A stretch of DNA of 64,000 nt, from assembly GCA_046350735.1 (NCBI GenBank), contig JAXLZU010000001.1, positions 307,950-371,949 of the forward strand, read 5' to 3'. Positions within the stretch are counted from its first letter, which is position 1. Every line of letters starts with the position of its first letter. Below the pieces are notes generated by a model. That model did no database searches and was not told where the DNA came from. It was given only the letters and a program-made list of their open reading frames with translations. The stretch is from Candidatus Saccharimonadota bacterium (GTDB lineage: Bacteria > Patescibacteriota > Saccharimonadia > CAILAD01 > BJGX01). The position numbers were made by a program, and so were the translations under genes. Of this stretch, positions 4,856 through 35,335 are shown one piece after another.

Positions 4856-7800
4856 ATGGCAGACGCTATTAAAGTAGGTGAGAATGAAATAATTAACAAA
4901 GCTCGGTCTGAGAAGGGGTTTGTTGATTTTGTGCATTTACACACCCATACTCATTACAGCTTGCTCGATGGCTTACAAAAAGTACCAGACTTGGTTAATC
5001 ATATAGAAAGTCTTGGTCAGAATGCCTGTGCTATTACCGACCATGGTACGCTTTCTGGCGCAATTGAGTTTTATAAAGCCTGCAAAGAGAAGGGTATTAA
5101 ACCAATAATAGGTATCGAAACCTACGTTGCCCCTCGTACTCATTTAGACAAAAACAGTGCAGAAGATAGAACACCATTTCACCTTACGCTCTTAGCTGAG
5201 AATATGCAGGGCTATAAAAATCTAATGAAGCTAAGTACGATAGCCAATCTAGAAGGGTTTTATTACAAGCCCCGCATAGACCACGATCTGCTCGAGAAGT
5301 ATAAAGAAGGGCTTATTGTACTCTCTGGTTGTGCAGGTGGTGAGCTAGGCAGTAAGATACTCGATAATAATTATGCCGAAGCAAAAAAAACTGCCGAGTG
5401 GTACAAGCGTGTTTTTGGTAAAGAAAATTATTTCTTAGAGCTACAACCCCACACCGAAGAATTTCAACAAAAAGTTAATACTGGCATTAAGAAGATTGCA
5501 AAAGAGCTCGATCTCAAATTGGTAGCTACTGGCGACTCACACTATTCGATATCCGACCAACATTATGCTCACGATATTTTGCTTTGCGTGCAGACGGGCA
5601 GCACAGTGGATGATGTTAAGCGCATGAAACTAGAGATGGATCTTTCGGTAGCACCTGGTAGTCATTTTGCAGAGTTCTTTAAAGACGTGCCAGAAGCAGT
5701 AAGTAATACAGTAACAATTGCCGAGCGTTGCGAGATAGATATAGAGCTAGGGCAAATCTTAATTCCTCGATTCCCCGATGTACCAAAAGGGAAGACCGAA
5801 AAATCACTATTACGAGAAATGGTGTTTGCTGGTGCTGCCAAGCGCTATACTGATTTGCAAGGTGATAACCTTACAGAAGACAAGGTAAAGCCACATTTGC
5901 CGGCAGAGGTATTAGAGCGAATTGAGTTTGAGCTAAAAGTAATTGGCGATATGGGCTATGAGGGTTATATGCTAATTGTGTCAGACCTTATTAATTGGAG
6001 CAAAGACCAAGGTATTGTCTGTGGCCCCGGGCGTGGGTCGGCAGCCGGCAGCATTATTGCTTATGCTACAGCCATTACCGAGCTCGATCCACTAAAGTAC
6101 GATCTTCTATTTGAGCGATTCTTAAATCCCGACCGTATTAGTATGCCAGATATTGATATGGACTACGCCGATGATAGACGAGAAGAAGTAATTAATTATG
6201 CCACTGAAAAATATGGCCAAGAGCGGGTAGCCCAGATAATTACCTTTGGAGTAATGGCTGCCCGTAACGCAGTACGTGATACCGGTCGTGTGCTAGGCTT
6301 ACCGTATGGTGAGGTAGATGCAATTGCTAAAGTAATACCGGCTCCTATTCAGGGTAGGCATGTACCACTAAAAAAATCTATTGTCGACAACCCAGAGCTA
6401 AAGGCAGAGTACACCAATAATCCCAAGGCCAAAGAAGTAATAGATATTGCTATGCAGCTAGAGGGTACTATTCGTAATGCTGGTACTCACGCCGCTGGTG
6501 TCGTAATTGCACCAGAAAATTTAGTAGAATATGTACCGCTTACACGGGCAAGCAAGGGTGGTGTAGCTACTCAGTATTCTATGAACCCTATCGAAGAGCT
6601 AGGTCTACTTAAATTTGATTTTCTTGGCCTTTCTAACCTAACAATTATTAAGAATACACTGCGTATTATTAAGAAGGTGTATGGCAAAGACATCGATGTT
6701 AATGACATTCCTATAGACGATAAAAAGACCTACGAATTATTAAGTAGAGGCGATACCACTGGTGTATTTCAGTTAGAGTCGGCAGGTATGAAGCGCTACA
6801 TTCGAGACCTTAAGCCTGATAGGTTTGAAGATATTATTGCCATGGTGGCATTGTATCGTCCAGGACCAATGCAGTGGATAGAAGACTTTATTAATCGAAA
6901 GCACAACCCTGGCCTTATTACGTATGGTCACCCTAAGATGCAAGATGCTCTAGAGAATACTTATGGCATTATTGTGTATCAAGAACAAGTAATGCAAATT
7001 GCCAAAGATCTTAGTGGCTTTACGGGTGGCCAGGCCGATACGTTACGCAAAGGTATTGGTAAGAAAATTCCCGAAGTAATTGCTAAGATGAAGCAAGAAT
7101 TTGTCGAAGGTGCTATTAAGACCAGCAAGGTAGATGAAAAATTTATTAACGATCTCTGGAAGAGTATCGAAGACTTTGCGGCTTATTGTTTTAACAAAAG
7201 TCATGCTGCGTGTTATGCACTTATTAGTGTGCAGACAGCATACTTAAAGGCGCACTATCCATCAGCATTTATGGCCGCCCTGCTTACCTCAGACCATGAA
7301 AACTTAGACCGTATAGCGATAGAAGTAACAGAGTGTCGTAAGATGGGTATAGAACTATTGCCACCCGACATTAACGAAAGTTTTGCCGAGTTCGCTGTAG
7401 TACCAGAGACTGGCAATATTCGCTTTGGCTTAGGAGCAATAAAAAATGTCGGCTCGGCACCCATTGAGATAATTCTAGAAGCTCGCAAAGAGGGTGGTAA
7501 GTTTCAGAATCTCGAAGATTTTTGCAAGCGTGTAGATGCTAGTGCTATCAACAAAAAAGTAATGGAGTCACTTATAAAGTGTGGTGCCTTTGATGGTATG
7601 GGAGATAGAGATACCTTACTCGAAAGTGTGGAGGTTATTACTGGCTATGCCTCTAGATTGCAAAAAAATGCTCTCAGTGGGCAAATAGATATTTTTGGCT
7701 CAATGGGTAAGCCCGAAGAAACTCCGCCACTCCGCCTCGTACCGCCAAGTGGTAAGGTAGACCCCCGCACACATTTAATGTGGGAGAAAGAACTTATGGG

Positions 7801-9585: not shown

Positions 9586-10266
9586 ATGAATCCTATCGCA
9601 ACCCTAGAAGCTAGCCAGAAGAAGGCCAAATTACCAGAAATTCATTCAGGTGATACTGTTAGAGTACACCAGAGAATTACTGAAGGTAAAAAGAGTCGTG
9701 TTCAGGTATTTGAAGGCCTGGTAATTCGTTACAGCAAGGCTGGCAGCTTGCAAGCTATTATTACTGTACGCAAGATAGCTTCTGGTGTAGGGGTAGAAAA
9801 GAGCTGGTTGGTACACAGTCCATCTGTAGAAAAGATTCAAGTTGTGAAACGTAGTAAGGTACGGAGAGCATTTCTTAGCTATATGCGAGATAGAAGTGGT
9901 AAATCGGCTAGATTGGCCGAAATGGGCTTCGATAAAGAAGCTACCAATGCTGCGGATAACCGCACTGCTACCCAAATAGCCGAAGAATCAAAGGCTGCAG
10001 AAGAGGAAGCAAAAATTGCTAAAGAAGAAGAAAAGCTCGACGGCGATAAAGCTGCTAAAAACGATGAAGCCCTCCAAGTAGAAGAAAGTACCGAAGATGT
10101 TGCTAAAGAAGAAGACAAAAAAGCCGCACAAGATGACGCTACTCCAGCCAGTGATAACGAGCCAAAAGATGCTCCAGCTGACGAAAAAGTAAATTCTGAC
10201 GGTAACGACGAGCAACAAGAAGCCGCCGAAGAATTTAAAGACGGCGTAGACAAAGCCGAGAAGTAA
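9586..10266 (+). CDS. rplS: 50S ribosomal protein L19 with a ~110-aa Lys/Glu/Ala/Asp-rich C-terminal extension
   Basis: Core GDTVRVHQRITEGKKSRVQVFEGLVIRYSKAG...TVRKIASGVGVEKSW...VKRSKVRRAFLSYMRDRSGKSARL matches L19; ATG at 9586 chosen over the upstream ORF-track start. Confidence 0.85.
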   Translation: MNPIATLEASQKKAKLPEIHSGDTVRVHQRITEGKKSRVQVFEGLVIRYSKAGSLQAIITVRKIASGVGVEKSWLVHSPSVEKIQVVKRSKVRRAFLSYMRDRSGKSARLAEMGFDKEATNAADNRTATQIAEESKAAEEEAKIAKEEEKLDGDKAAKNDEALQVEESTEDVAKEEDKKAAQDDATPASDNEPKDAPADEKVNSDGNDEQQEAAEEFKDGVDKAEK

Positions 10267-32793: not shown

Positions 32794-32880
32794 GCCGCGG
32801 TGGTGGAATTGGTAGACACGCCAGCCTTAGGAGCTGGTGAGGTAACACTCGTGGAGGTTCAAGTCCTCTCCGCGGTACCA
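32794..32880 (+). tRNA. tRNA-Leu (anticodon UAG), class II tRNA with long variable arm, CCA encoded
   Basis: Acceptor GCCGCGG/CCGCGGT, D-arm with AATTGGTAGAC, anticodon stem CCAGC/GCTGG with loop CTTAGGA, T-loop GGTTCAAGTCC, terminal ACCA. Confidence 0.8.
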
Positions 32881-34014: not shown

Positions 34015-34043
34015 TTGACACACTACATTTGTTTTGCTACAAT
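34015..34043 (+). promoter_or_regulatory. near-consensus sigma70 promoter (TTGACA-17 nt-TACAAT) driving the large non-coding transcript
   Basis: -35 TTGACA at 34015-34020, 17-nt spacer, -10 TACAAT at 34038-34043. Confidence 0.75.
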
Positions 34044-34848
34044 CGTAATCACGTTTTTGAACCTTACATTTGCTGCTAAAGAGTAATCTTATGCAGCGAT
34101 AACCAGCTTTTTCTAGAGTATCTGCTTAGCGCGGGTGCACGGTTTGATTCGCCTCATAAAGAATCTGGTTATCGCTGCAGTTTGCAGCAACAGAAGTGTC
34201 ACCGCAGTGTTCTGCGCCTCGCGAGTAATCGCGCTCTGCCCACAGGGGATCGGTGGAGTTGTCGTGTGCCCCAGAACCACACGTTTGCAGCTCTGCCTTA
34301 ATGGTCGGGTATGGGTTAAACTACCAGGCTGCGGTGACACGCCAATCGCTAGCTCGTCATGGATGGCCACGACGTTGGCCGTGAGCTCTCCTGAGCTTGA
34401 AATACGAGCTGGCAGTGATGTGCGGGTTATCTCATGGGTGACCGAACCGAAGTGCGCGCAAGGGAAGACCGATAACCTTGTTCGCTCGGACGATCCTGTG
34501 AGTCGGCAGTAGGCTTCGGTCTCGCCCTCACATCACATGCTCGCGTTCCATCTTGCTTAGTGGGCAGGAATTACCCACCAGGGTGGAACGCACCAATCAG
34601 TGCCGGCTCGCGGAAGCGGGCGAGTACTAGCGGAATCGCCTGTAAAACGGGGGTCTTCGCGAGCCGGCACGTTTTTCCGCGCGCTAGTCTCGCCAGCTGA
34701 GCCATCTCCGGGTGGGGCCAATGCGAGCGGATGCGCCTGAGAGACCGAAGCTGTTGCCAACGGCTGAGGAGCAGTAATTGAGTGCCTACTCCAAAACCAC
34801 TCTTGCCCCGGTCTCTCGGGCGAAATCGAAACAGGTAACTGTTTTGAA

Positions 34849-34917
34849 GGGGACGAAGTTCTTGTGGAAGAACACCTGCCCATCGGCAGGAGGTGTGGTT
34901 CGACTCCACCGTCTCCA
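34849..34917 (+). ncRNA. tRNA-like element inside the large ncRNA (7-bp acceptor, 4-bp D-stem, hairpin with 6-nt loop in place of anticodon arm, tmRNA/tRNA-type T-loop GGTTCGACTCC)
   Basis: GGGGACG...CGTCTCC-A acceptor pairing; GTTC/GAAC D-stem; CCTGC/GCAGG stem with 6-nt loop; the 3' half GTGGTTCGACTCCACCGTCTCCA closely resembles the 3' end of Bacillus-type tmRNA; no encoded CCA. Confidence 0.5.
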
Positions 34918-35237
34918 CTGGTAGTACAATCTCGACGGCGGGCCCTTCCTGTCACCGGCGGAAAGATTGTGCTCCATCCCGGCTTCGGGTCGGGTTGCAC
35001 TAAGGTGTGATGTTCGCTACTAGCGCCTTACGTGTAACTCGGCTCGTCGCCGGACCACCCCCTTGCCTCAATACTAATGTATTGGGGCTTTTCTTATGCA
35101 AACAGGTTGAGTTAAACAAGGTATTATGATATATTTATAAGTATGAATACAGTTAAAACAGCTTGGTTTTATTTTACAAACTCTGTGTCTCGCCGAGGTG
35201 TTTTGCGTTAAAGTCTAAATAGTATGTAATTAATTGT

Positions 35238-35267
35238 AAGCCTCGGCTAAAGCCGAGGCTTTTTTTG
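35238..35267 (+). terminator. rho-independent terminator (AGCCTCGGC-TAAA-GCCGAGGCT + T8)
   Basis: Perfect 9-bp GC-rich hairpin followed by TTTTTTTT. Confidence 0.85.
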
Positions 35268-35335
35268 TTGGTATTACTGTGATTCGCTACAACTTAGAGA
35301 ATCACATCTGTACCTTCAACGCAAAGGAGAAGTAG

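Follow-up and report, generated by a model that had tools for sequence, protein, structure and literature searches.

We found that the 64,000 nt stretch of DNA analysed here (called the window; part of contig JAXLZU010000001.1 of a Candidatus Saccharimonadota bacterium) contains, upstream of tig, the gene of a large RNA of about 1,050 nt (about 34050-35096), which extends from its own promoter to its own terminator and bears at 34849-34917 (+) a tRNA-Ala-like module of 69 nt that lacks an anticodon. This large RNA is a previously undescribed structured non-coding RNA of one Saccharibacteria-like (Patescibacteria) clade, and no description of such an RNA was found in the literature. The surrounding RNA family, which has no match in Rfam, is the main new item; tRNA-like modules in large non-coding RNAs are already of a known kind (GOLLD-linked tRNAs, MALAT1-mascRNA). 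For the module itself, the explanation that we favour, and to which we give about an even chance, is that it may be a tRNA-Ala-derived processing handle, read by RNase P and at its 3' side, and possibly by the CCA-adding enzyme and alanyl-tRNA synthetase (AlaRS), within this new large structured RNA.

Relatives were obtained through contigs encoding trigger-factor relatives, together with one metagenome pattern scan, and ten further contigs proved to have the large RNA at this locus too, which with the window made 11 loci. L011 was a near-identical independent assembly, L001, L002 and L005 were 83-88% identical, L006 and L009 were divergent, L010 was cut by the contig end, and the trigger factors of L035, L037 and L038 were 61-64% identical; L036 showed the 3' end of the RNA only. 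The members of the family measured 0.4-1.4 kb and carried one to three tRNA-like modules each, and they had in common the promoter, a 5' motif, a hairpin with a CUGCCAA-type loop, the tRNA-like module and the terminator. Compensatory changes among members were observed in the helices of the 5' domain and of the core, and in the distant members the tRNA-like module was the best-conserved segment of the whole RNA. One metagenome match (L004) was discarded as a chance one, because it shared only 21 bases and gave no covariance-model match.

Three-frame translations of three homologues revealed no conserved reading frame in the large RNA. An antisense open reading frame (ORF) of 147 aa that overlaps the module (34557-35000 (-) in the window and 5056-5499 (-) in L011) is almost certainly spurious; it had been called as a gene in the public metagenome annotation of L011, is frameshifted in L005 and L002 and is missing in L006 and L009. 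A role as cis-regulatory leader of the downstream genes was rejected too: the RNA ends in a terminator of its own, and these genes differ among the members, being a small ORF plus a 108-aa gene, a MOSC gene or tig directly. When the window and three divergent homologues were compared with the known Rfam families, both at gathering score and with permissive E-values, only tRNA-type models matched, and they did so on the tRNA-like modules themselves; the models of GOLLD, ROOL, OLE, HEARO and raiA gave no match on the window RNA (E <= 10), on L006 and L009 (E <= 5) or on L035 (E <= 1). A phage origin was rejected as well, since blastn against 50,697 phage records gave no match to the large RNA and three family-specific patterns detected no family member in viral contigs. 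A fourth pattern, of the alanine-type acceptor and T arm, retrieved from viral contigs only tRNA-Ala genes and mini-tmRNAs, plus a small number of tRNA-like genes without anticodon, none of them related to the large RNA.

The best promoter site of the region, matching 11 of the 12 consensus positions, was localised at 34015-34043 (+) and consists of TTGACA, a 17 nt spacer and TG-n-TACAAT, with the start of the large RNA probably near 34050. L001, L002, L005, L006, L009, L035 and L038 retain both the -35 and the -10 element as well as the bases at the start of the transcript. The intrinsic terminator at 35065-35096 (+) has a 10 bp stem followed by a T tract, and its position was kept in L001, L002, L005, L006, L009, L010, L035, L037 and L038, with G-C, G-U and A-U changes in the stem. 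A preliminary description of this DNA, made from the sequence alone, had placed roughly 350 nt of AT-rich sequence between the module and the terminator; the terminator lies in fact about 150 nt downstream of the module and within GC-rich sequence, and the AT-rich stretch at 35100-35270 does not belong to the same unit, being a separate small-ORF unit that is missing in some family members.

The predicted fold of the ~1,050 nt RNA was extensive. Its 5' domain (34050-34345, +) contains the 5' motif UUUGAACCUU, present in the family form UUUG(A/U)ACCUU in all the members read, and a long helix in which UGCAGCGAUAACCAG (34091-34105) pairs with CUGGUUAUCGCUGCA (34165-34179) on the + strand; a six-sequence consensus fold predicted 25 pairs in this domain, five of them with changes on both sides. 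A variable insert of 252 nt with CCAATC repeats at its flanks follows (34348-34599, +, according to the alignment and BLAST coordinates), which is missing in L001 and is of other length and sequence in L002 and L005. The conserved core helices (34600-34848, +), defined by consensus folds with compensatory changes, include a hairpin with a UGCCA loop at 34751-34765 (+) and another one at 34828-34845 (+), which stands just 5' of the module and is followed by the 3 nt linker GAA. A related 15-mer, GGTGCTGCCAACACC, was found exactly in L006, L010 and L035, 55-80 nt upstream of the module, and also in L038, and the hairpin with the CUGCCAA-type loop lies 55-100 nt upstream of the module throughout the family. 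The module itself sits in a GC island (55-62% GC) delimited by the promoter and the terminator, and the 3' domain after it (34918-35062, +) comprises a hairpin at 34924-34972 and then a long hairpin at about 34980-35055, the latter replaced in relatives by extra tRNA-like modules. Inside the former, an inner hairpin GACGG...CUGUC (34934-34953) exposes the pyrimidine-rich loop CGGGCCCUUC (CCUUUC in L006); the sequence of this inner hairpin was constant and its enclosing stem covaried (ACAAUCU/AGAUUGU vs UCUCUCU/AGAGAGA).

The sequence of the module (GGGGACG-AA-GTTC-TTGTGGAA-GAAC-A-CCTGCC-CATC-GGCAGG-AGGT-GTGG-TTCGACT-CCAC-CGTCTCC-A) is exactly the one from which the preliminary description had drawn a cloverleaf, and ARAGORN, the predicted fold and the conservation in 11 loci agree with it. 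That the module is part of a conserved structured RNA of about 1 kb had escaped that description. On the + strand the module has an acceptor stem with G3:U70 (34849-34855/34910-34916), a D arm (34858-34873), a capped hairpin CCTGCC-CATC-GGCAGG that replaces the anticodon arm (34875-34890), a T arm with the loop TTCGACT (34895-34909) and a discriminator A (34917). The minimum-free-energy fold was the cloverleaf (-32.1 kcal/mol; z = -2.9 from 200 shuffles, two of which folded as well). ARAGORN reported a 'tRNA-???' at 34849-34918 with an anticodon of 2 nt, that is, a loop of 6 nt; this call, together with the capped or extended arms of the relatives, bears out the earlier statement that no standard anticodon can be presented here. 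Both the D and the 'anticodon' arms can also be drawn as 6 bp stems with tetraloops, and the loop is better described as a 6 bp stem with a tetraloop cap. Compared with the tRNA family (RF00005), the module shows a cloverleaf with a 7 bp acceptor stem and D, anticodon and T arms, the last with a UUCRANY loop, and it lacks the 7 nt anticodon loop with a 3 nt anticodon. At gathering score, Rfam gave nothing on the window module, tRNA (gathering score 29 bits) and tmRNA both remaining below 20.7 bits, and in a permissive search the best match was tRNA-Sec (20.7 bits, E = 0.87).

Using a covariance model built from three copies, the module was recovered in 10 related loci, with E from 1e-23 to 5e-4. 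Each copy alone folds as a cloverleaf at minimum free energy, and a manual parse gave all four helices in seven distinct sequences. In the alignment of the copies, which includes three rows that are not modules (two antisense and one tRNA-Lys-like), 95.7% of the cells were paired and 12 pairs had changes on both sides, and none of 500 shuffles reached the observed values. The acceptor 5' strands were GGGGACG, GCGGACG and GGGTGCG, with pairs 2:71, 4:69 and 5:68 double-substituted, the 4 bp D stem covaried (GUUC/GAAC vs GCUC/GAGC), and the T stem, of 4 bp in the window copy, had 5 bp in most relatives. The 'anticodon' arm was different in nearly every lineage, varying in sequence and length with the pairing always kept, and consisted either of a 5-7 bp stem capped by 3-5 nt or of an arm of ~40 nt (L009 and L037). 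Its variants were CCTGCC/GGCAGG with the cap CAUC, CCCGCC/GGTGGG with AGUU, TTTCGC/GCGGAA with UUCG, CTTTGCC/GGTAAAG, CCCCGAC/GTTGGGG with GAAA, TTCGTC/GACGAA with GUUU, and CCGTC/GACGG with a triloop, UUA and CCUAG being also among the caps, and a 7 nt anticodon loop was seen in the module of no family member. Three relatives exceeded the Rfam tRNA threshold (L006, 43.8 bits; L009, 51.3 bits; L035, 43.2 bits), with the loop counted as an insertion.

These data bear on the idea that the module is a decaying tRNA pseudogene, a real tRNA-Ala with a sequencing or assembly indel or the remnant of an integration into a tRNA gene or ssrA. A tRNA-Leu gene does lie 2 kb upstream, the locus differs between relatives, and both the AGGU variable region and the CCUGC/GCAGG anticodon stem resemble their counterparts in tRNA-Ala. 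The conservation pattern nevertheless refutes this idea and leaves it almost no probability: the helices have been kept by compensatory changes in 11 loci, the loop has been replaced by different stable caps, the module is embedded in a conserved transcription unit, and no integrase or repeat boundaries were found at the element. Conservation of this sort means that the module is neither a decaying tRNA nor the product of an indel, so that the ssrA-island remnant and the degenerated tRNA listed as options in the preliminary description can be set aside, and the sequencing indel that it had contemplated for the anticodon loop is contradicted by the identical module of the independent assembly L011.

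The G3:U70 pair was present in 11 of 11 loci, in three acceptor contexts, and 10 of the 11 also had A73, the exception being L035 with C; this confirms an acceptor of the tmRNA/tRNA-Ala type and provides the tRNA-Ala identity set. The likeness to the 3' end of Bacillus tmRNA that had been pointed out earlier holds as far as the shared alanine-type acceptor and T arm are concerned, and it is not specific to tmRNA, since the matches of this pattern in viral contigs were mostly genuine tRNA-Ala genes (about 14 of 23). These matches, together with the conserved helices and G3:U70, indicate that the module derived from tRNA-Ala. The covariation argues that selection acts on its shape and on the alanine identity pair, and not on decoding. 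The invariance of G3:U70 is not explained by end-processing alone and so suggests that recognition by AlaRS, or by another reader of the pair, matters.

A further explanation takes this last point as the central one, and proposes that a released, alanine-charged RNA would be the selected function, with the large RNA acting mainly as its precursor or regulator; such a non-decoding carrier could donate alanine to a non-ribosomal reaction (to a cell-wall cross-bridge or in lipid aminoacylation), or could report on or titrate AlaRS. The retention of G3:U70 at every locus while neighbouring pairs covaried, the near-constant A73, an anticodon arm free to vary, as AlaRS ignores it, and an acceptor/T-arm pattern that is that of genuine tRNA-Ala genes are all consistent with this proposal. 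We regard it as quite unlikely, however, because neither the related loci nor those window ORFs that were scanned showed a Fem-type, MprF-type or other aminoacyl-tRNA transferase, CCA is rarely encoded, and the 0.4-1.3 kb of conserved flanking structure would be left unexplained.

According to the processing-handle explanation, which was also the option favoured in the preliminary description, the module would be recognised by enzymes that read the tRNA shape and ignore the anticodon. For RNase P, the 3' trimming enzymes, the CCA-adding enzyme and AlaRS alike, what counts is the elbow and the acceptor/T-arm stack, which are exactly the conserved parts of the module, and the anticodon plays no role. 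RNase P would cut at 34848|34849, and RNase Z or exonucleases would trim after A34917, which would give an upstream RNA of ~800 nt with a defined 3' end and a downstream piece of ~150 nt with a defined 5' end and would free the 69 nt tRNA-like RNA. The freed RNA could then receive CCA and, because G3:U70 and A73 are conserved, alanine from AlaRS, and it would take no part in decoding. Cleavage, CCA addition, alanylation and the downstream role of the module are all steps that we infer from sequence comparison. In the loci with flanks read, G1 follows a linker of 1-6 unpaired nt and no leader-trailer extension of the acceptor stem was seen, an arrangement that fits access by RNase P.

Several observations weigh against the processing handle. 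The window copy has A8 in place of U8 and a T stem of only 4 bp, and it stays below the Rfam tRNA threshold; CCA is encoded in only 2 of the 11 copies, whereas the neighbouring tRNA-Leu gene encodes it; a pure processing role leaves the conservation of G3:U70 unexplained; and, the homologues being from one clade, part of the conservation could be inherited and not selected. Moreover, the trailer after A73 may pair with 34320-34327, which would fit a module that stays embedded. This candidate long-range helix joins ACUACCAG (34320-34327) with CUGGUAGU (34918-34925, directly after the discriminator base), and the L002 equivalents, ACUGCUGG and CCAGCGGU, contain three double changes; the helix is imperfect in L005 and was not found in L006, and chance alone should produce about two 8 bp matches in each RNA, so we propose it only tentatively.

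This helix, with its double changes in L002, is one of the points consistent with a module that is never excised and would serve the large RNA as a domain for structure or docking, with its elbow and acceptor/T-arm stack binding a partner such as the ribosome, EF-Tu, AlaRS or a modification enzyme, or making intramolecular contacts. The tRNAs covalently linked in the linker that GOLLD RNAs sometimes carry would be a parallel (PMC12286853). Besides, the conserved RNA around it is much larger and no part of it is more conserved than the module, and CCA is mostly not encoded. On the other hand, the helix has the weaknesses just given, the leader before G1 is unpaired, the sister modules look like tRNAs that need release, and bacterial RNase P is generally known to cleave nearly any exposed acceptor/T-arm mimic. 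On balance, permanent embedding seems to us unlikely, with a chance large enough to be kept in mind.

The last explanation considered was a relative of tmRNA, either a SmpB-titrating variant reduced to the tRNA-like domain (TLD), similar to the TLD-only tmRNA homologue of mycobacteriophage DS6A (PMC4131195), or a tmRNA of unrecognised layout. The acceptor stem and the T loop do match tmRNA-type sequences, and the same pattern detected TLD-only tmRNA-like genes of ~80 nt, without an mRNA-like part, in IMG/VR viral contigs (L017 5131-5214, L030 9912-9996, L029 6056-6137 and L033 2817-2893). These four viral genes pass the Rfam tmRNA threshold with 54-76 bits, showing that the tmRNA test discriminates, and the window module scored below 20.7 bits with the same model; some of the four adjoin tRNA genes, and together with DS6A they suggest that the TLD-only type is more widespread in phages. 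On the window RNA, the tmRNA model (RF00023) gave no match at gathering score or at E <= 10, ARAGORN reported no tmRNA, no conserved tag-peptide frame was present in three homologues, and the permuted tmRNA model reached only 17-18 bits on L009 and L035. A tmRNA, including one of permuted layout, was rejected on these grounds, in agreement with the preliminary description, which had considered neither a normal nor a permuted layout to fit. A TLD-only mini-tmRNA is not indicated either, given the lack of an RF00023 match and a covarying D stem of 4 bp; this true D stem and the anticodon-arm hairpin fill the space where SmpB binds, and the GGAUUCGAC-type D-loop motif is missing. Kinship with tmRNA is in consequence largely refuted and very improbable.

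Extra tRNA-derived modules were found in several relatives and precede the terminator, as a second module or, in L038, also as a third one. L006 carries at 6549-6622 a tRNA-Lys(CUU)-like gene (67.1 bits) with two U·U acceptor mismatches; the second module of L035 is at 9857-9933, the second and third of L038 are at 2043-2116 and 2271-2340, and L010 has a further one at ~462-553. In L038 a tRNA-Phe(GAA) with atypical D and T loops was called, and modules with an 8 nt loop ('cgcg') or degenerate ones bearing a T arm were seen in L035, L010 and L038. The tRNA-Lys(CUU) and tRNA-Phe(GAA) modules look like genuine tRNAs and imply that the transcripts containing them must undergo tRNA maturation, which gives the processing handle indirect support. 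There is also a lesson for annotation here, as the modules come out of tRNA finders as 'tRNA-???', Arg, Lys or Pyl, and gene callers put the spurious 147-aa ORF across the RNA.

The window is a stretch of housekeeping chromosome with a GC content of ~40%, which includes gatA/B, dnaE, nusA, clpC, radA, recG, purF, rsmD, aroA, a tRNA-Leu gene, a greA-like gene, tig, clpP, rpoB and rpoC, and its trigger-factor relatives labelled Candidatus Saccharibacteria are 52-58% identical, so that the organism most likely belongs to this group of Patescibacteria. The tRNA-Leu(UAG) gene, with CCA encoded, is located at 32794-32880, ~2 kb upstream of the tRNA-like module, and its counterparts are at 5138-5224 (-) in L006 and 3309-3395 in L037. 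A tRNA-Leu(UAG) gene was present near the locus in most relatives with sequence there, at differing positions and orientations, and in L006 it has the opposite orientation and immediately precedes the promoter of the large RNA. In L007 and L008, which are at a similar distance, the large RNA is missing at the locus and only tRNA-Leu lies between aroA and tig. The loci with tRNA-Leu alone and the shifting position of this gene suggest that the large RNA and the small genes behave as an insertion beside a tRNA gene. The neighbouring ORFs of 173, 108, 74 and ~157 aa gave uninformative results with Pfam and NCBIfam (a weak Nfu_N match only), and the 108-aa protein has only three homologues among 5.8 billion proteins. 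The small-protein genes are not beside the RNA in L010, L035, L037 and most likely L038, and the neighbouring proteins were rejected as partners of the RNA on account of these uninformative domain matches and of the relatives lacking the genes beside it.

Just past the terminator of the large RNA begins the separate small unit (35107-35268), which comprises a promoter-like site (35107-35135) in the AT-rich stretch 35100-35270, a conserved 22-codon ORF, MNTVKTAWFYFTNSVSRRGVLR, at 35143-35211 with four aromatic residues in a row (WFYF), and a strong terminator at 35238-35268, upstream of the genes for the 108-aa and 74-aa proteins. This unit has the look of a leader-peptide attenuator: weak matches to the Rfam Phe_leader model were obtained in the window and in L006 (24.6 and 24.2 bits), and the substitutions in the 22-codon ORF between these two loci are partly synonymous. 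L010 and L035 lack the small unit, and the parts of L037 and L038 that were read showed no homologous ORF.

Two observations were made in the viral contigs. In L017, an EGFOA RNA (RF02955, 61.6 bits) was found at 5398-5503, ~200 nt downstream of the mini-tmRNA and a tRNA-Leu gene. In L026 (5439-5511 (-)) and L012 (2671-2753 (-)), tRNA-Ala-like genes with G3:U70 occur inside phage tRNA clusters and have tetraloop-capped hairpins as anticodon arms (GTCGCC-ATCC-GGCGGC and CCGCC-GCAA-GGCGG, respectively); like the window module they are alanine mimics without anticodon, of the same kind, but they stand alone.

Large, highly structured bacterial RNAs of obscure function are rare, and OLE, GOLLD, ROOL, HEARO and raiA each opened new biology. 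A non-coding gene of 1 kb is a large investment in the genome-reduced, little-studied Saccharibacteria, and a mimic that has no anticodon and keeps the alanine-specifying pair offers a concrete experimental entry point.

Compared with known systems, the module follows genuine tRNA-Ala (RF00005) in its acceptor stem and T arm and differs from it in having A8 and not U8 and in a CCA that is mostly not encoded. With the TLD of tmRNA it shares G3:U70 and A73, a canonical T arm and the lack of an anticodon; in contrast, it has a genuine D stem, a hairpin as anticodon arm and no mRNA-like domain, and an ordinary cloverleaf fills the 60 nt that separate its acceptor strands. MALAT1-mascRNA and NEAT1-menRNA (RF01684) likewise present a tRNA-like cloverleaf without a functional anticodon, placed within a long non-coding RNA near its 3' part. 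The MALAT1-mascRNA structure, which is eukaryotic and nuclear, is cut by RNase P and RNase Z, and the role that we propose here, the definition of the ends of the flanking RNA with release of a small tRNA-like RNA, would be similar. However, mascRNA is not aminoacylated whereas our module keeps the alanine identity pair, processing is in our case only proposed, and no homology is implied, the mascRNA model reaching only 18 bits on L035.

The nearest likeness in overall design is to GOLLD (RF01998) and ROOL, which are also ~1 kb, highly structured and ORF-free, with a conserved and a variable part, linked tRNA or tRNA-like units and an adjoining tRNA gene, the function of both being obscure. 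GOLLD RNAs have been described as giant and ornate RNAs near tRNA arrays, with tRNAs sometimes in a linker region (PMC12286853). The large RNA differs from GOLLD and ROOL in residing in a cellular housekeeping region and not in a phage or prophage, and from GOLLD in that its invariant linked unit is an anticodon-less mimic and not a decoding tRNA. It is conceivable, though in our opinion doubtful, that with it a new class of large ornate bacterial RNA has come to light, specific to one lineage of Saccharibacteria, of the candidate phyla radiation (CPR), whose hallmark would be an alanine-chargeable mimic without anticodon and which would be linked to alanylation. In that case the RNA, or a piece of it, would be aminoacylated or would engage AlaRS or the ribosome through the mimic, with a function beyond decoding, trans-translation and simple end-processing, and it would be a chromosomal counterpart of the tRNA-carrying GOLLD assemblies, bearing on the question raised by GOLLD of why giant RNAs carry covalently linked tRNAs.

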